This document shows, piece by piece, positions 3,771-62,206 of a DNA stretch of 64,000 bases. Position numbers and translations under genes: made by a program. The number at the start of each line of letters is the position of its first letter. The stretch's first letter is position 1. The stretch is from Escherichia coli (GTDB lineage Bacteria; Pseudomonadota; Gammaproteobacteria; Enterobacterales; Enterobacteriaceae). The stretch is taken from NCBI RefSeq assembly GCF_045037415.1, contig NZ_CP173438.1; one strand, 5' to 3'. The notes under the pieces are model-generated. The model saw nothing but the letters and a program-made list of their open reading frames with translations, did not search any database and had not been told where the DNA came from.

Positions 3771-3852
3771 AAATTATTCGCACACTAAATATAACCGCTC
3801 ATCACCCTGCTCCGGCATGAGCCTGACGCCAACATAAACCAAGAGATTTCAA

Positions 3853-6042
3853 ATGCTTTCGACACAATTTAACAGGGATAATCAACATCAAGCCATCATC
3901 AAACCGTCACTCCTTGCCGGTTGCATAGCACTGGCACTATTACCTTCCGCCGCTTTTGCTGCACCAGCCACTGAAGAAACGGTGATTGTTGAGGGTTCAG
4001 CCACAGCCCCAGATGATGGCGAAAATGATTACAACGTAACGTCTACCTCTGCGGGTACAAAAATGCAGATGACTCAACGTGATATTCCTCAGTCGGTCAC
4101 TATTGTTAGCCAGCAGCGGATGGAAGATCAGCAGTTACAAACGCTGGGCGAAGTGATGGAAAACACGCTGGGGATCAGCAAAAGTCAGGCGGATTCCGAT
4201 CGTGCTCTTTATTATTCCCGCGGATTCCAGATCGATAACTATATGGTTGATGGTATCCCCACCTATTTTGAATCGCGCTGGAATCTGGGCGACGCACTTT
4301 CTGATATGGCACTGTTTGAACGCGTAGAAGTAGTGCGTGGCGCGACAGGCCTCATGACCGGGACGGGTAATCCATCTGCGGCAATTAATATGGTTCGAAA
4401 ACACGCGACCAGTCGTGAATTTAAAGGCGATGTCTCGGCGGAATACGGTAGCTGGAACAAAGAACGGTATGTGGCGGATTTACAAAGCCCACTCACCGAA
4501 GACGGTAAAATCCGCGCACGAATTGTCGGCGGCTACCAGAATAACGACTCATGGCTGGACCGCTACAACAGTGAAAAGACCTTCTTCTCCGGCATTGTCG
4601 ATGCTGATTTAGGCGATCTTACGATGCTTTCAGCCGGTTACGAATATCAGCGTATTGATGTTAATAGCCCAACCTGGGGCGGTTTACCGCGCTGGAATAC
4701 TGATGGCAGCAGCAACAGTTACGATCGCGCACGCAGTACCGCACCTGACTGGGCGTACAACGATAAAGAGATCAACAAGGTCTTTATGACCCTGAAGCAG
4801 CGGTTTGCTGATACCTGGCAAGCGACGCTGAATGCCACCCACTCTGAAGTCGAATTTGACAGCAAAATGATGTATGTCGATGCCTATGTAAACAAAGCGG
4901 ATGGTATGCTGGTTGGGCCATACAGTAATTATGGCCCTGGTTTTGATTATGTCGGAGGCACCGGTTGGAACAGCGGCAAACGTAAAGTTGATGCGCTGGA
5001 TCTGTTCGCTGACGGTAGTTATGAATTGTTTGGTCGTCAGCACAATTTAATGTTTGGTGGCAGTTACAGCAAACAAAACAATCGTTACTTCAGTTCATGG
5101 GCCAACATTTTCCCGGATGAAATTGGCAGTTTCTACAACTTTAATGGCAATTTCCCACAAACCGACAGGTCACCACAGAGTCTGGCGCAGGACGATACCA
5201 CACATATGAAATCGTTATATGCTGCCACTCGTGTCACCCTTGCCGATCCGCTGCATCTGATCCTCGGCGCACGTTATACCAAGTGGCGGGTTGATACGCT
5301 GACTTACAGCATGGAGAAAAACCACACCACGCCTTATGCTGGACTGGTGTTTGACATCAATGATAACTGGTCGACCTACGCCAGCTATACCTCTATTTTT
5401 CAGCCGCAAAATGATCGTGACAGTTCAGGCAAATATCTGGCACCAATCACCGGTAACAACTACGAGCTGGGTCTGAAATCGGACTGGATGAATAGCCGTC
5501 TGACCACCACGTTAGCCATCTTCCGTATTGAGCAGGATAATGTCGCTCAGTCCACCGGTACACCTATCCCCGGCAGCAACGGCGAAACCGCCTATAAAGC
5601 GGTGGATGGGACAGTCAGTAAAGGTGTGGAATTTGAACTCAACGGCGCAATTACCGACAACTGGCAGCTGACGTTTGGCGCAACGCGCTATATTGCAGAG
5701 GATAACGAAGGAAACGCCGTTAATCCTAATCTGCCACGCACCACGGTTAAAATGTTCACCAGCTATCGGTTGCCTGTCATGCCAGAGTTGACGGTCGGCG
5801 GTGGTGTTAACTGGCAAAATCGCGTGTATACCGACACCGTGACACCGTATGGCACCTTCCGCGCCGAGCAAGGTAGCTACGCGCTGGTGGATCTCTTCAC
5901 CCGCTACCAGGTGACGAAAAACTTCTCGTTACAGGGGAACGTCAATAACCTGTTCGACAAAACCTACGATACCAACGTGGAAGGTTCTATTGTCTACGGC
6001 GCACCGCGTAATTTAAGCATTACCGGCACGTATCAATTCTGA
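3853..6042 (+). CDS. fhuE: TonB-dependent outer-membrane receptor for ferric coprogen / rhodotorulic acid
   Basis: 729 aa ORF with signal peptide, TonB box-like N-terminus and C-terminal aromatic residue (…TGTYQF) typical of TonB-dependent receptors. Confidence 0.95.
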   Translation: MLSTQFNRDNQHQAIIKPSLLAGCIALALLPSAAFAAPATEETVIVEGSATAPDDGENDYNVTSTSAGTKMQMTQRDIPQSVTIVSQQRMEDQQLQTLGEVMENTLGISKSQADSDRALYYSRGFQIDNYMVDGIPTYFESRWNLGDALSDMALFERVEVVRGATGLMTGTGNPSAAINMVRKHATSREFKGDVSAEYGSWNKERYVADLQSPLTEDGKIRARIVGGYQNNDSWLDRYNSEKTFFSGIVDADLGDLTMLSAGYEYQRIDVNSPTWGGLPRWNTDGSSNSYDRARSTAPDWAYNDKEINKVFMTLKQRFADTWQATLNATHSEVEFDSKMMYVDAYVNKADGMLVGPYSNYGPGFDYVGGTGWNSGKRKVDALDLFADGSYELFGRQHNLMFGGSYSKQNNRYFSSWANIFPDEIGSFYNFNGNFPQTDRSPQSLAQDDTTHMKSLYAATRVTLADPLHLILGARYTKWRVDTLTYSMEKNHTTPYAGLVFDINDNWSTYASYTSIFQPQNDRDSSGKYLAPITGNNYELGLKSDWMNSRLTTTLAIFRIEQDNVAQSTGTPIPGSNGETAYKAVDGTVSKGVEFELNGAITDNWQLTFGATRYIAEDNEGNAVNPNLPRTTVKMFTSYRLPVMPELTVGGGVNWQNRVYTDTVTPYGTFRAEQGSYALVDLFTRYQVTKNFSLQGNVNNLFDKTYDTNVEGSIVYGAPRNLSITGTYQF

Positions 6043-6052
6043 ATAACGCCTG

Positions 6053-6079
6053 TAAAAAAGGCAGCCATCTGGCTGCCTT
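6053..6079 (-). terminator. rho-independent terminator downstream of ptsG
   Basis: Stem aaggcagcc/ggctgcctt (6058-6079) preceded on the plus strand by an A-run, i.e. hairpin followed by U-run on the ptsG (minus) transcript. Confidence 0.7.
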
Positions 6080-6101
6080 AGTCTCCCCAACGTCTTACGG
6101 A

Positions 6102-7535
6102 TTAGTGGTTACGGATGTACTCATCCATCTCGGTTTTCAGGTTATCGGATTTAGTACCGAAAATCGCCTGAACACCAGAACCAGCAACCACTACGCCCGC
6201 TGCGCCCAGTTTCTTCAGGCCAGCCTGATCCACTTTAGACACATCAGCAACGCTGACGCGCAGACGGGTAATACATGCGTCGAGGTTAGTAATGTTTTCT
6301 TTACCACCAAATGCAGCAACCAGAGCCGGTGCCATTTCGCTGGTACCTGTCGCTTTTGCGTCTTCAGTCGCGTCTTCACGACCCGGCGTTTTCAGATCCA
6401 GTGCTTTAATCAGCACGCGGAAGATGGTGTAGTAAACAATGGCATAACCGATACCGACGATCGGGAACAGCCACAGTTTGCTGCTGTTACCAGACAGAAC
6501 GATGAAGTCGATCAGACCGTGCGAGAACGACGTACCGTCACGCATCCCCAGAAGAATACAGATTGGGAATGCCAGGCCTGCCAGAATCGCGTGGATGATG
6601 TACAGGATCGGCGCAACGAACATGAAGGAGAACTCGATCGGCTCGGTGATACCGGTCAGGAACGAGGTCAGCGCCGCGGAGATCATAATACCGCCCACTT
6701 TCGCGCGGTTTTCTGGTTTAGCAGAGTGCCAGATAGCAATTGCGGCAGCTGGCAGACCGTACATTTTGAACAGGAAGCCACCAGACAGTTTACCCGCAGT
6801 CGGGTCACCCGCCATATAACGCGGAATGTCGCCGTGGAAAACCTGACCTGCTGCGTTGGTGTATTCACCAATCTGCATCTGGAAAGGTACGTTCCAGATG
6901 TGGTGCAGACCAAACGGTACCAGGCAACGTTCGATGAAACCGTAAATGCCAAACGCAACTACCGGGTTCTGGTAAGCAGCCCACTGAGAGAAGGTCTGGA
7001 TTGCAGAGCCAATAGGCGGCCAAATGAAGGACAGCACAACGCCAGTAAAGATGGCAGTCAGGCCTGAAATGATCGGCACAAAGCGTTTACCGGCAAAGAA
7101 GCCAAGATACTCAGGCAGCTTAATACGGTAGAAACGGTTAAACATGTACGCTGCGATCGCACCGGAGATAATCCCCCCGAGTACGCCAGTATCCGCCAGG
7201 TGTTTAGAGGCGATTTCTTCAGCAGGTAAATGCAGTACCAGTGGCGCAACCACGGCCATGGTTTTAACCATGATGCCATAGGCAACAACTGCGGCCAGCG
7301 CGGATACGCCATCGTTATTGGTAAAGCCGAGGGCGACACCGATCGCAAAAATCAGTGGCATGTTTGCAAAGACGGAACCGCCTGCTTCTGCCATAACATG
7401 CGATACAACGGCGGGCAGCCAGCTGAAATTCGCGGAACCGACGCCCAGCAGAATACCTGCGATAGGCAGTACGGATACCGGCAGCATCAGCGATTTACCG
7501 ACCTTTTGCAGGTTAGCAAATGCATTCTTAAACAT
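6102..7535 (-). CDS. ptsG: glucose-specific PTS enzyme IICB
   Basis: 477 aa [36 protein letters not shown]... with EIIC membrane domain and C-terminal EIIB (…[11 protein letters not shown]…). Confidence 0.97.
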
Positions 7536-7640
7536 AATTGAGAGTGCTCCTGAGTATGGGTGCTTTTTTTACGTTCTCACGCGTGGCAAGGGGGGAGTGC
7601 CTCGCCGTGTACAGGGCATCTAAGCGCCCTTTATTTATTA
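7536..7640 (-). promoter_or_regulatory. ptsG 5' UTR including the ribosome-binding region targeted by sRNA SgrS
   Basis: Reverse complement reads ...AAAGCACCCATACTCAGGAGCACTCTCAATT-ATG, the ptsG leader known to pair with SgrS. Confidence 0.7.
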
Positions 7641-7655
7641 CACAGAGTAAAATAA
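7631..7655 (-). promoter_or_regulatory. candidate Mlc (NagC-family) operator of the ptsG promoter
   Basis: Near-palindrome TTATTTATTACACAGAGTAAAATAA with TTATTT...AAATAA arms, located about 100 bp upstream of the ptsG ATG. Confidence 0.5.
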
Positions 7656-7829
7656 TTCAGTGCCGATTTGTTTGACGGCTATCACGTTTCAACTTCAGAT
7701 CATTGGAGAAGTTGCACATTTTGACAAAACATATGTCACAATATTTCAAACGTGGTTATTCACCGCCCGATTTTCGGCGGTGAACTTTACTCGTTTTAGC
7801 CATTAATTACGAGCTTTAAAAAAACTCAT

Positions 7830-8627
7830 TCAACGGATGGATTGAAGGCGGGAAGCATCGATGTGAAACAGACGGGCGAAGTTATCGGTGGTTACCTGCG
7901 CCAGTTCTTCAACGGCAACACCTTTCAACACAGCCATGTATTCTGCAACGTCACGAACCATCGCAGGTTGATTCTCTTTTCCTCGATGCGGTACTGGCGC
8001 AAGGTAAGGTGAGTCAGTTTCCACCAGTAACCGATCCAGGGGGACATAACGCGCAGCATCGCGCAGTTGCTCCGCATTACGGAAGGTCACAATGCCGGAA
8101 AAGGAGATGTAAAATCCGAGATCCAGTAATTTACCCGCCGTTTCTCTGTCCTCTGTAAAACAGTGTAGTACGCCACCGCAATCCGTCACTTTTTCTTCGC
8201 GCAGAATTGCCAGCGTATCGGCGCGGGCGTCACGGGTGTGGACGATAACCGGCTTGTTCAGTTCACGACCAATCTGGATATGATGGATGAAGGACTCTTG
8301 CTGACGTACTTTAGTTTCCGGCGTGTAATAATAATCCAGCCCGGTTTCACCCAGCGCTACAACGCCCTCTTCTGCCGCCAGACGACGTAAATCTTCTACA
8401 TCGTAGGGATCATTCTGGTTGAGTGGATGCACGCCACAAGAAAATACGACGTTGTCGCGTTCGCCTACCAGATCCCGCATGTGTAAATAACCCGGTAATG
8501 TTGTGGCGACTGCCAGACAAAATTTCACATCGCGTGCGGCGGCTTTCGCCAGAACGTCATCCACGTCCTTATGCAAAGATTCATAATCCAGACCATCGAG
8601 ATGGCAGTGTGAGTCGACTAAAAACAT
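7830..8627 (-). CDS. ycfH: TatD-family metal-dependent DNase
   Basis: ORF with [11 protein letters not shown]... start (ATG at 8625-8627, 265 aa); the upstream extension in the ORF track is not supported. Confidence 0.9.
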
Positions 8628-8637
8628 GATGTCTCTC

Positions 8638-9642
8638 TTAAAGATGAGGAACCGGTAGCACAACGCCCGGTTGCAGGTAATGCTCAATACGCAGTAAAAG
8701 ATCGGTGATGAGAAGCTCGCGGTTGATACCTGTGACAGACATTAACTGTTCACGAATGTGGCAAACATCCCCCAGTATAGCCTGCAGGCGCGAGGGAGAA
8801 AGATGGTTTGCCAGTTCGACGACCAGCCCCGGCACATCAACATTGGTCACGTGCGCAGCGCCATAATGGCGTTTTAGCGCATCCATCAGCAACGTTGCCA
8901 GCCAGTGTAAACGCGCCGGAGCTTGTTCATTATTAAGGGCCGCTAGCAGCGAATACCAGTCGCCCGATTGCACGCCATATGCCAGCGCCTGACACAATGT
9001 TTCACGAGCCTGCCAGTTATCTCCCTGAAACAACGCCAGTGCCGCCCCAGGCGAACCGGCGCTTAAGCGCAATGCGGCAAGTAGTGCATCCTGTGACATT
9101 GTCACTTCGCGTGAAAGCCAGGTCACGGCGTACTGTTCCGGCGGCGGCGCAAGGTAATGTAACCGACAACGACTACGTAATGTTGCCAGTAAACGTTCTG
9201 GCTCGCGGGTAGCAAGGAAAAACCACGTCTCTGCTGGTGGCTCTTCAAGCGTTTTCAGCAATGCGTTAGCCGCGGCGTCGGTTAGTAAGGCAGCATCGGT
9301 TACCCAGACAACTTTCGCACCACCTAAGCGTGCGTGCTCATTCAGCTTTTCGGTGACCTCACGTACCGCATCAATGCCCAGCGCATTTTTCCCTTTTTCG
9401 GGAGCCAGGGTGTAGTAATCGGGATGTGTGCCAGCCTGCATCAACTGACATCCACGACAGTGACCGCAACTTTTGTGGCCCTGCGGTTGTTGGCAGAGTA
9501 AATAACGGCTCAGGGCGTAGATTAAAGCATCATCGCCCATGCCCGGTAACGCCTGAATGAGTAGCGCATGGTGACCTCTTCCGGCCTGATAGCTGGCTAC
9601 CAGTTTTTCGAAATCAGGTCGTAACCATGGATACCATCTCAT
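8638..9642 (-). CDS. holB: DNA polymerase III delta-prime subunit
   Basis: [40 protein letters not shown]...; clamp-loader AAA+ fold with Cys-rich zinc module (CGHCRGC); start ATG overlaps tmk stop (ATGA). Confidence 0.95.
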
Positions 9643-10280
9643 GCGTCCAACTCCTTCACCCAATTGGTCACGGTAGTGCGGATTGCATCCATCACGGCCT
9701 CCAGCGGCTGGGTGGCATCAATGGTATGAATGCTTTTATCTTGTGCTGCCAGTTCCAGATAGCGGGCGCGGGTGCGATTAAAGAAATCGAATGACTCTTG
9801 CTCAATACGATCCAGCTCACCACGGGCGCGAGCACGTTTTAAGCCGACCTCTGGGGTGACATCAAGATAAAGCGTTAAGTCAGGGCGAAAATCCCCGAGA
9901 ACAGCATCACGCAGTGTTGCCAGCATATGTTGGTCAATACCACGTCCTCCACCCTGATAGGCTTGAGTGGAGAGATCGTGGCGATCGCCAATCACCCAGG
10001 TGCCGTTAGCCAGCGCAGGTTTGATGACCGTTTCTACCAGTTGAACGCGCGCGGCATAAAACATCAAAACTTCGGCTTTATCGGTAATGACTTCATCGCC
10101 TACCGATTTGATATCCAGCACCAGGCTTCTTAACTTTTCGGCAAGTTGCGTACCGCCAGGTTCCCGAGTGAAAACCATGTCGCGGATACCCAGTTGCTCA
10201 AGCGTCTCAACCACCACGTTACGCGCGGTAGTTTTGCCTGCGCCTTCCAGCCCCTCAATGACGATATACTTACTGCGCAT
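9639..10280 (-). CDS. tmk: thymidylate kinase
   Basis: 213 aa [21 protein letters not shown]... with P-loop. Confidence 0.97.
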
Positions 10281-11292
10281 TTTTTTCCTTAAGCACTTTC
10301 AGATAATCCTGCACAGACTTGTTATGACTGGCAAGATTGGTATTAAACGTGTGACCACCTTTACCATCGGCCACAAAATAGAGATACGGCGTTTTTGCCG
10401 GATGCGCAGCAGCCTTCAGCGAATCCGCCCCCGGCGTCGCTATCGCACCTGGCGGCAGACCGGTAATGGTATAGGTGTTATACGCTGTCGGCGTTTCCAG
10501 GTCTGCACGAGAAAGTTTGCCATTATAACGCTCTCCCATCCCGTAAATCACGGTCGGGTCGGTCTGCAGGCGCATACCAATGCGTAAACGGTTGATAAAT
10601 ACTGAGGCAACCTGATCGCGTTCACTGGCAACGGCGGTTTCTTTTTCGATAATTGATGCCATCGTCACCAACTGGTTTTTATCTTTATAAGGCAGACCGT
10701 CCGCACGCCCTTCCCAGGCGCTATCGACCGCTTTCACCATTTTCTTGTGCGCTCGTTTGAGTAACGCGACATCGGTGGTATTGGCGGTATACATCCAGGT
10801 GTCTGGCCAGAACCAACCTTCAATCCACTCCGGGTTTTCCAGTTCAAGTGCCTGCGCTACGGTGGCGTACTTATCGTCGCTCAGCGTGTGCTTGATATAC
10901 GGAGCCTCACGCAATTGCTTGAGGTAGTCGCTCAGACGCATCCCTTCTACCAGTCGCAGCGGGAACTGTGCTTCTTTACCGCTTTCCAACAATTTCAGCA
11001 TCTCGCGCACGGTCATCTGCGGTGTAAAGCGGTAAGTCCCGGCTTTAAAGTGAGAAAGATCCGGTTCGATACGCAGCAGCCATTGGAAAACCCGTGGGCG
11101 ATTGATGATCTTATCGGCATAAAGCTGTTCACCGAGCGCCAGACGTCCGGTCCCTGGCTTCAGGGTAAATATCGTCTCTTCTTTGATAAGCAATTTGCTG
11201 TCGGCAAGATGGCGAACCTTCCAGACGCCCACACCAGCGGCGATACCCAGTACCACCAGCAATAACAAGATTATCAATAACACTTTTTTCAT
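10270..11292 (-). CDS. mltG: endolytic murein transglycosylase (YceG/MltG family)
   Basis: 340 aa ORF with N-terminal transmembrane helix [20 protein letters not shown]... and YceG-like domain. Confidence 0.92.
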
Positions 11293-42741: not shown

Positions 42742-42792
42742 TTATCCTTTGTGTCCGGCAAAAACATCCCTTCAGCCGGAGCATAGAGATTA

Positions 42793-51884: not shown

Positions 51885-51990
51885 TTGCCGGATGCGGCGT
51901 GAACGCCTTGCCAGACCCACAAAATCTTGCAAAATCAATAAATTGCAGGAACGATGTAGGCCTGATAAGCGTAGCGCATCAGGCAACTAC
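51885..51990. repeat. REP / BIME cluster downstream of opgH
   Basis: gccggatgcggcgtgaacgcc... and gtaggcctgataagcgtagcgcatcaggc, typical REP palindromes. Confidence 0.8.
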
Positions 51991-56459: not shown

Positions 56460-57617
56460 ATGAATCCAGTACCCGCGCAACGTGAATATTTCCTCGACTC
56501 CATCCGCGCCTGGCTGATGTTGTTAGGGATCCCTTTTCATATTTCTTTAATCTATTCGAGCCATACATGGCATGTGAATAGCGCCGAGCCGTCATTGTGG
56601 CTGACCCTTTTTAATGACTTCATCCACTCGTTCCGCATGCAGGTGTTTTTCGTTATATCCGGGTACTTTTCCTACATGCTTTTTTTACGCTATCCCTTGA
56701 AAAAATGGTGGAAAGTACGTGTCGAACGTGTAGGTATCCCGATGTTAACAGCCATCCCCTTACTGACATTGCCGCAATTTATTATGCTGCAATACGTCAA
56801 AGGCAAAGCGGAAAGTTGGCCTGGGCTGTCATTGTATGACAAATATAATACGTTGGCCTGGGAATTAATATCACACCTGTGGTTTTTACTGGTGTTAGTG
56901 GTCATGACGACGCTGTGCGTATGGATATTTAAACGCATCAGAAATAATTTAGAAAATTCTGATAAAACGAATAAAAAATTCTCGATGGTAAAATTATCGG
57001 TGATTTTTTTGTGCCTCGGCATCGGTTATGCGGTAATAAGAAGAACGATTTTTATTGTGTATCCACCCATTCTGAGTAACGGCATGTTCAATTTTATTGT
57101 CATGCAAACGTTATTTTATTTGCCGTTCTTTATCCTCGGCGCACTGGCTTTCATTTTCCCTCATCTTAAAGCCTTGTTTACCACGCCTTCTCGTGGCTGT
57201 ACCCTTGCAGCAGCATTGGCGTTTGTCGCTTATTTACTCAACCTGCGCTATGGCAGTGGCGATGCCTGGATGTATGAAACCGAGTCGGTGATCACCATGG
57301 TCCTCGGTCTGTGGATGGTGAATGTGGTCTTCTCCTTTGGCCACCGTTTGCTTAACTTCCAGTCAGCGCGGGTGACTTATTTTGTTAACGCATCGCTGTT
57401 TATCTATCTGGTTCACCACCCGTTAACGCTGTTTTTCGGCGCATACATTACACCACACATCACCTCCAACTGGCTTGGTTTTCTCTGTGGCCTGATATTC
57501 GTAGTAGGGATTGCGATAATTCTGTATGAAATTCATTTACGCATCCCATTATTGAAGTTTTTGTTCTCTGGTAAACCGGTTGTTAAGCGTGAGAACGATA
57601 AAGCACCTGCCCGTTAA
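56460..57617 (+). CDS. opgC: OPG succinyltransferase (acyltransferase-3 family membrane protein)
   Basis: 385 aa polytopic [36 protein letters not shown]... Confidence 0.92.
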
Positions 57618-61454: not shown

Positions 61455-62206
61455 GTTGTCACCCTGGACCTGGTCGTACATTTAAGAAATTAAATCATTT
61501 CAACTTGGTTGTTAACGCAACCCGTATTTTGTTAACGCTGCGTTACGATGGAAAGTATGTCTGCGGAAATATTTTTAATAACTCACCCGCGCGTTGTATT
61601 TTTCTTTTTTTGTTCATACCAAAGTATTAAAACCCACGTAAATACGCTGTTATCTACGCAAAAAATATTTTGTTTTCTTTTAAATCTCCGTTTTCCGCTA
61701 TCAAAAATCACCAGACAGTCATTCTTCTTGCCCGTCGCTGATTGCTGCGATATGTCTTGCGCACAAGCCGTGACAAACCTCGTCTTTTTGCAGTAAAAAA
61801 TTGTCCACGGTGGTATGGAGAAAAAACAAGAACGTTTTACATGACGAAAGGACTACAGCGAAATATTTTTTATATGCATTATTAGTAAGTTAGCACCATT
61901 TGTATGATTTTTTAAAATTGTGCAATAAAAACCAAATGTACAACTTTTCTATCATTTCTAAACTTAATAAAACCTTAAGATTAACATTTTAATATAACGA
62001 GTTACATTTAGTTACATGTTTAACACTTGATTTAAGATTTGTAATGGCTAGATTGAAATCAGATGTAATCCATTAGTTTTATATTTTACCCATTTAGGGC
62101 TGATTTATTACTACACACAGCAGTGCAACATCTGTCAGTACTTCTGGTGCTTCTATTTTAGAGGCAGCTGTCAGGTGTGCGAACAATAAAAAAGCGGGGT
62201 TTCATC
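61455..62206. promoter_or_regulatory. csgBAC / csgDEFG divergent intergenic regulatory region
   Basis: 752 bp strongly AT-rich non-coding gap between divergent csgB and csgD; in E. coli it is known to hold the csgB and csgD promoters, many regulator binding sites and the long csgD 5' UTR. Confidence 0.85.

Follow-up and report, generated by a model that had tools for sequence, protein, structure and literature searches.

Introduction

Which control elements are packed into the 295 bp that separate the stop codon of ycfH from the start codon of ptsG in Escherichia coli, and what can a comparison across related genomes still add to a region of this kind? The control of ptsG is a textbook example of a link of sugar transport to gene expression, and it operates in two ways: the transporter itself sequesters its own repressor, and sugar-phosphate stress leads to silencing of the mRNA by a small RNA. 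The regulators assigned to ptsG include Mlc, cAMP-CAP, ArcA, SoxS, Fis, sigma32, sigmaS and SgrRST (PMC3901232). The region is among the best-characterised control regions in E. coli; it is already known, and there is nothing new in its occurrence. An early sequence-only reading of the spacer, which recognised an SgrS target and an Mlc-type operator upstream of ptsG, proved accurate in this recognition, and the residual value of the present analysis lies in comparative observations, namely a constant operator spacing, a covarying hairpin over what is probably a promoter start, and the conserved C-rich loop of a hairpin in the leader. Taken jointly, the assignments of P1, the CRP and Mlc sites, P2, the SgrS target and the hairpin make it very probable that positions 7536-7829 comprise the regulatory spacer of ptsG in E. 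coli in its entirety.

Identity of the locus and comparative sample

The window, i.e., the whole stretch of 64 kb that was analysed, carries the locus on its minus strand. A segment of 551 bases around the region was matched in 5,424 of the complete E. coli genomes, which number 5,426, and in many of these the identity is 100%. Since ptsG and ycfH are the genes annotated in RefSeq under these 100%-identical matches, the identity of the region is settled: positions 7536-7829 are the whole ycfH-ptsG intergenic region of E. coli. The distance of 295 bp from the ycfH stop codon to the ptsG ATG is the same as in MG1655, and K-12 coordinates were mapped onto the window position w by w = 7830 - (K-12 coordinate - 1157574). 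The features of the spacer are compiled in Table 1.

For the comparative part, 120 genome loci were found with a degenerate DNA pattern for the N-terminus of PtsG, of which 112, all from Enterobacterales/Vibrio genomes, have at least 330 nt of upstream sequence. In all 107 loci with enough flank, the upstream gene is co-directional and encodes a YcfH homologue. A search of positions 5500-10500 against Rfam returned no match at E <= 1. Elsewhere in the window, matches above the gathering threshold were obtained for the rne 5' UTR element (20676-21012), the sRNAs SraB (18647-18815), ES056 (62061-62152) and ES036 (51921-51963), and the PyrC leader (42743-42792), all of which are consistent with an E. 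coli chromosomal context.

Table 1. Features of the ycfH-ptsG spacer, listed from the ptsG start codon upstream (window coordinates)
Feature	Coordinates	Strand	Description
ptsG start codon ATG	7533..7535	-	CDS 7535..6102, 477 aa; from ORF list, RefSeq name ptsG; K-12 1157869 = window 7535
SgrS pairing site on ptsG mRNA	7543..7564	-	rank 1 in RNAduplex; core of 8 bp, AUACUCAG, at 7557..7550 with SgrS nt 174-181
Shine-Dalgarno AGGAG	7547..7551	-	11 nt before ATG; CAGGAG at same position in 110/112 orthologous upstream regions
A-tract AAAAAAA	7564..7570	-	directly 5' of SgrS site; A-rich run at same place in most aligned leaders
Leader stem-loop SL2 (GGCGAGG-CACUCCCC-CCUUGCC)	7585..7606	-	MFE fold; conserved C-rich loop
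Leader stem-loop SL1 (AGGGCG-CUUAGA-UGCCCU)	7613..7630	-	+9..+26 of P1 transcript; MFE fold
P1 transcription start	7638	-	-103 relative to ATG; probable -10 TACTCT at 7649..7644
Proximal Mlc operator O1, TTATTTTACTCTGTGTAATAAAT	7633..7655	-	rule match; centre 7644, -6 from P1 +1; 7/11 dyad symmetry; corresponds to the near-palindrome of the sequence-only reading
CRP site, CGTGATAGCCGTCAAA	7671..7686	-	8/10 matches to TGTGA-N6-TCACA; class II geometry, with the centre at -40.5 relative to P1
Conserved GC-rich hairpin	7759..7784	-	9-bp stem UUCACCGCC/GGCGGUGAA, 8-nt loop, 6 G-C pairs
-10-like hexamer TAAAGT, probable P2 -10	7784..7789	-	directly 5' of hairpin stem; conserved TAnnnT
Distal Mlc operator O2, TTTTTTTAAAGCTCGTAATTAAT	7802..7824	-	strict rule match; centre 7813, -175 from P1, at about -35 of putative P2
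ycfH stop codon TGA	7830..7832	-	ORF 7830..8687; annotated ycfH

Mlc operators, promoter P1 and the CRP site

[quoted passage not shown] A scan of the window with the strict rule WWWWWTT-N9-AAWWWWW gave four matches against 0.63 expected, and two of the four fall inside the 295-bp spacer. The proximal one coincides with the near-palindrome TTATTTATTACACAGAGTAAAATAA, which the sequence-only reading had proposed as an Mlc operator and which is found exactly where it had been placed, at 7631-7655, with its centre 109 nt upstream of the ATG. The proposal stands: the site agrees with the published Mlc/NagC definition in every sequence feature, extends over the P1 start and shows conservation among the Enterobacterales. 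Judged by its sequence, the near-palindrome is the Mlc operator O1 of promoter P1. In both O1 and the distal site O2, all ten flanking positions are A/T and +/-11 is T/T, and the T at both +/-11 positions of O1 marks the Mlc type rather than the NagC type (for the distinction, see PMC4288165).

Of the 112 species, 104 have a proximal site that obeys the rule at the corresponding position, and 76 have both sites; shuffled upstream regions average only 0.012 rule matches each. The right arm of O2, CTCGTAATTAAT, is nearly invariant. The spacing of the two centres is kept within 167-169 bp in 63 of the 76 species with a mode of 168 (40/76); in E. coli it amounts to 169 bp, about 16 helical turns, and in Vibrio it is 162. 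The constant spacing of 167-169 bp suggests that the two operators are phased on the same face of the helix, with possible looping by tetrameric Mlc.

The third match to the strict rule, AATTATTCGCACACTAAATATAA at 3772-3794 (+), lies about 60 bp upstream of a 729-aa ORF that starts at 3853 and is probably fhuE; this match may be plain AT-rich promoter or Fur-box sequence. The fourth, at 56974-56996 (+) inside a 385-aa ORF (56460..57617), is most likely a chance occurrence. With these two further matches, one of them within an ORF, the strict rule alone is not specific.

Plumbridge and Kimata are both said to have reported in 1998 Mlc binding and Mlc-dependent repression at ptsG, and the Mlc footprints attributed to these studies agree with O1 at -6 and O2 at -175. 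On the other hand, by ChIP-qPCR in MG1655 neither Mlc nor Fis was enriched at ptsG under the conditions used (PMC8846999). No evidence was found that contradicts the Mlc, CRP or SgrS assignments.

The position of P1 follows from the work of Urban and Vogel, who cloned the ptsG 5' UTR from -103 (PMC1807950, Table 1); this puts +1 at 7638 and thereby the centre of O1 at -6. The hexamer TACTCT is the probable -10 element of P1, and TAC(T/C)CT is conserved in the aligned leaders. Further upstream, the CRP site falls within the class II definition, a TGTGA-N6-TCACA-like site near -41.5/-40.5, and 97 of 104 species carry a CRP-like site with at least 8/10 matches whose distance to the centre of O1 is likewise -34.5. 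As a description of the whole control region, the sequence-only reading was borne out for O1 and the SgrS site; it had missed O2, the CRP site and the probable -10 box of P2.

The SgrS target at the ribosome-binding site

SgrS nucleotides 168-187 are complementary to the ptsG leader, and nucleotides 168-181 are enough for repression (PMC7870926, PMC2760806). The pairing core consists of eight contiguous base pairs that adjoin and overlap the ribosome-binding site, with G176 and G178 being critical, as regulation is lost when they are mutated (PMC2760806, PMC7870926). SgrS represses a ptsG fusion that begins at -103 (PMC1807950), and Hfq-dependent repression in vivo together with decay by RNase E has been documented for the SgrS-ptsG pair (PMC1807950, PMC7870926, PMC2760806).

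The string AAAGCACCCATACTCAGGAGCACTCTCAATT, which the sequence-only reading had singled out in front of the ptsG ATG as the region targeted by SgrS, is present as the reverse complement of 7536-7566 and ends right before the start codon; the range 7536-7570 then given for it adds four A's (AAAAAAAGCA...). The pairing was predicted with the authentic SgrS sequence, taken from the K-12 gene (NC_000913.3, 77367-77593), whose 20-nt single-stranded seed (nt 168-187) was run in RNAduplex against all 30-nt windows from either strand of the 64 kb. The best duplex, at 7564..7543 with -27.1 kcal/mol, ranks first among 25,315 distinct ones and stands about 5.8 sd from the mean of the background (-9.84 +/- 2.96). 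A duplex is thus predicted at the ribosome-binding site, as the sequence-only reading had anticipated, and the K-12 seed pairs here better than elsewhere in the window. It comprises blocks of 5, 8 and 4 bp in this order, with one mismatch between the first two, and has G176 of SgrS opposite C7552 and G178 opposite C7554. The core (7557..7550) overlaps the AG of the Shine-Dalgarno sequence (7551..7547), and the duplex reaches to 7543, 8 nt from the ATG. The sequence ACTCAGGAG is conserved in 103 of the 112 orthologous upstream regions. The gene for SgrS was not found within the 64-kb window; it is encoded elsewhere in the genome.

The outcome depends on the choice of the 20-nt seed. When SgrS was used at full length on the leader, RNAduplex paired everything and the structure was meaningless, and with a 34-nt SgrS segment against 40-nt windows the ptsG site was not top-ranked; a specific result came from the 20-nt seed only. 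A second contact was considered as well, formed by a perfect 9-nt complement, CCCCCUUGC / GCAAGGGGG, between 7594..7586 (-) in the 3' half of SL2 and nt 7-15 in the 5' hairpin of SgrS. It was rejected because chance alone yields as much (in 152 of 2000 shuffles, i.e., 7.6% of shuffled leaders) and because both partners are buried in their own stems.

One may ask whether the operator and SgrS matches are nothing but coincidental AT-rich or complementary sequence without any regulatory role. The Mlc rule is indeed degenerate, with two unrelated matches in 64 kb, and a complement to the SgrS 8-mer is expected about twice per 128 kb, a further one occurring at 7107 (+). Yet the first-ranking SgrS duplex sits exactly at the ribosome-binding site, two Mlc-rule matches share one 295-bp spacer with position and spacing kept in more than 70 species, and published genetics exists both for the SgrS-ptsG pairing and for the TT/AA positions of the Mlc operator. 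In view of the conservation data and the published mutational work, coincidence is refuted and retains a practically negligible probability.

Structure of the ptsG leader

The 103-nt leader is modular and conserved, its elements following one another in the order SL1, SL2, small GC hairpin, A-tract, and SgrS site with the Shine-Dalgarno sequence. RNAalifold, applied to 95 leaders, retains no helix other than SL1, whose four remaining pairs show GC/AU and CG/UA exchanges. SL2 and SL3 are lost by RNAalifold through indel misalignment, and SL2 was analysed by anchor instead: 85 of the 95 leaders have a hairpin of at least 5 bp in the SL2 zone. The 5' arms of these hairpins come in 60 distinct sequences, whereas the C-rich motif YCUCCCC is nearly constant, being present in the loop in 71 of the 95. 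SL2 is conserved across Enterobacterales with freely varying stems, and its loop resembles an anti-Shine-Dalgarno sequence (CUCC), which could contact the ptsG Shine-Dalgarno sequence or bind some factor. A description of this C-rich loop was not found in the accessible literature. The A-tract is a candidate for an A-rich element that is possibly bound by Hfq.

Two terminator-like matches on the plus strand, at 7613-7630 and 7540-7567, correspond to SL1 and the SgrS-site region, respectively, read on the opposite strand; they are regarded as incidental, because no plus-strand gene reads into them. In the Term-seq data of Adams et al. (2021), RNA 3' ends are located inside the ptsG ORF at window positions 7487 and 7447 (K-12 1157917 and 1157957), i.e., at +48 and +88 of the coding sequence, and the latter is marked 'Yes' in a column taken to mean Rho dependence. 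Such ends might arise by premature termination or by decay of the leader and the early part of the ORF.

The hairpin between ycfH and ptsG and the putative promoter P2

The second palindrome noted early on, TTCACCGCC-CGATTTTC-GGCGGTGAA, is present and perfect and lies at 7759-7784, two nucleotides away from the 7757-7782 first ascribed to it. It had been suggested to be either the terminator of ycfH or a further regulator site. It begins 45 nt downstream of the ycfH stop codon, always follows ycfH in the genomes compared, and is unique in the 64-kb window. The RNA of the ptsG/ycfH strand, with flanks, folds at -21.5 kcal/mol (z = -4.5), and none of 200 shuffles folds as well.

The pairing was followed in a gapless 65-column alignment of 63 distinct sequences that took O2 as its anchor, without selection for the hairpin. 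The stem is paired in 81% of cells, compared to 34-49% when the partner is slid, and eight of the nine stem pairs change on both sides, e.g., from A-U to U-A or from G-C to C-G; none of 500 shuffles reaches either the observed covariation score or the percentage paired. The hairpin is thus real and, as far as the covariation in the alignment goes, selected for pairing. Being a perfect 9+9 inverted repeat with an operator on either side, in a promoter region under dense regulation, the element could also be taken for a double-stranded DNA site of a dimeric regulator instead of an RNA structure, and an action on ptsG has been reported for ArcA, Fis, SoxS and Cra. In a protein site the sequence itself would be conserved, however, whereas here the stem differs between genera with the pairing kept, including the double changes at eight of nine pairs, and the loop is variable too. 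Since pairing is maintained while the stem sequence changes, a folded single strand is favoured over a protein-binding DNA palindrome, which we regard as a quite improbable reading. Of the two functions originally suggested, the covariation argues for the one at the level of RNA or single strand over the protein site, and the terminator function in turn encounters the missing canonical U-tract in E. coli.

An intrinsic terminator combines a GC-rich stem-loop after the stop codon, which is found here, with a U-tract directly 3' of the stem, which is not found in E. coli. The E. coli tail UAACCACGUUUGAAAU has no adjacent U-tract, with a maximum of 4 T in any 8-nt window, the richest of which begins 8 nt after the stem, and in a terminator scan of the minus strand the hairpin with its tail UAACCACGUUUG was not called. 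In many genera a T-rich run does follow the stem (in 43 of 66 with at least 5 T per 8-nt window within 16 nt), and some genera carry canonical terminators, such as the Pantoea-type AGCCCTG...CAGGGCTGCTTTTTT. No ycfH 3' end is among the entries listed from the thresholded Term-seq tables of Adams et al. 2021 (PMC7815308); ycfH is weakly expressed. The accessible literature holds no documented role for the ycfH-ptsG hairpin and does not mention ycfH together with ptsG.

Directly at the 5' arm lies the -10-like hexamer, which is probably the -10 element of a second promoter, P2. In alignment A1 (63 sequences) its hallmark positions are T26 in 57, A27 in 58 and T31 in 58 sequences, and the hexamers include TAAAGT (32), TAATGT (13), TAGAGT (5) and TACAGT (3). 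A -35 candidate, TCGTAA at 7812..7807 inside O2, is weak, with 3/6 matches at a spacing of 17 bp. The P2 start is predicted at about 7778-7777, some 7 nt downstream of the -10 hexamer and inside the 5' arm of the hairpin. A start near this position would lie about 140 bp upstream of P1, where Plumbridge reportedly mapped P2 in 1998. The only match of a promoter scan, TTGTCA-17-AATGAT at 7727..7699, was disregarded, as it fits no known start and one such match compares to 0.9 expected by chance. A further helix, GCTCGT/ACGAGT (7814..7809 with 7794..7789), is paired in 91% but nearly invariant, with a single pair showing double changes, and is uninformative; it probably just mirrors the conservation of the operator and the -10 hexamer.

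The vicinity of P2 raises the question of whether the hairpin belongs mainly to this promoter, as a GC-rich discriminator or initial transcribed region, or constitutes the 5' structure of a longer P2 transcript, and is not a ycfH terminator at all. Such an assignment would fit the conserved -10-like hexamer that abuts the 5' arm, the want of a canonical U-tract in E. coli and the absence of a ycfH 3' end from the Term-seq entries listed. A discriminator role, however, leaves the covariation between the 3' and 5' arms unexplained, a transcript starting at about 7778-7777 would have lost the greater part of the 5' arm and with it the ability to form the hairpin, and in several genera a clear T-run follows the equivalent hairpin. 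A role mainly as part of P2 or its transcript is considered unlikely. With moderate confidence, the hairpin is most likely a weak terminator or insulator of ycfH that is escaped by P2 transcripts.

Regulatory scheme

The elements can be combined into a scheme in which the main promoter P1 is activated by cAMP-CRP bound at -40.5 (7686..7671), and Mlc on O1 (7655..7633) represses P1, its -10 region and start site being covered. O2 (7824..7802), 169 bp upstream of O1, would overlap the -35 region of the minor upstream promoter P2. Upon glucose transport, dephosphorylated PtsG sequesters Mlc at the membrane, and both operators are vacated. Under glucose-phosphate stress, SgrS together with Hfq pairs at 7564..7543, blocks ribosome binding and triggers decay by RNase E. 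The hairpin, on the other hand, would form in read-through RNA from ycfH and end or insulate that transcription just before the ptsG promoters, while transcripts from P2 would begin inside its 5' arm and hence be unable to form it. The action of Mlc, CRP and SgrS in this scheme comes from published work, and the present analysis contributes the sequence matches, the rank of the SgrS duplex, the conservation with its spacing and the covariation of the stem; P2, looping by Mlc and the function of the hairpin are inferred.

A more far-reaching version, tentatively put forward here as a possibility that we would not rate as probable, treats the hairpin as an insulator embedded in a promoter, which would halt or destabilise read-through from the holB-ycfH operon with P2 transcripts being immune, and adds looping by tetrameric Mlc over about 168 bp, or 16 turns, to enclose both the hairpin and the CRP site. 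Neither a promoter-embedded insulator nor Mlc looping at ptsG was found described in the accessible literature.

Comparison with known systems

The closest relative is the ptsG promoter/operator region of K-12 itself (ptsGp1/p2 with Mlc, CRP, Fis, ArcA and SoxS), with which the present region shares the locus, the 295-bp spacer, P1 at -103, the start covered by an Mlc operator, and the CRP site centred at -40.5; there is no difference, the region being a strain copy of the known one. The same applies to the SgrS-ptsG pairing system, Hfq-dependent and acting through occlusion of the ribosome-binding site and RNase E decay: the complementarity, the core over the Shine-Dalgarno sequence and the partners of G176 and G178 are all retained, again without any difference. 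With intrinsic (Rho-independent) terminators between co-directional genes, the hairpin has in common the GC-rich stem-loop after a stop codon and, in many genera, the T-runs that follow; it differs in that the U-tract beside the stem is missing in E. coli and Citrobacter and in that its 5' arm overlaps a probable promoter start. Finally, the two-operator promoters of the ROK-family regulators NagC and Mlc, e.g., nagE-nagB, manX and hilE P3, likewise carry 23-bp TT-N9-AA quasi-palindromes, two per promoter and one of them over the start (PMC1874608, PMC4288165). The operators of ptsG stand apart from these by their spacing, which is about 168 bp as compared to about 98 nt cited for other two-site Mlc promoters (PMC1874608).
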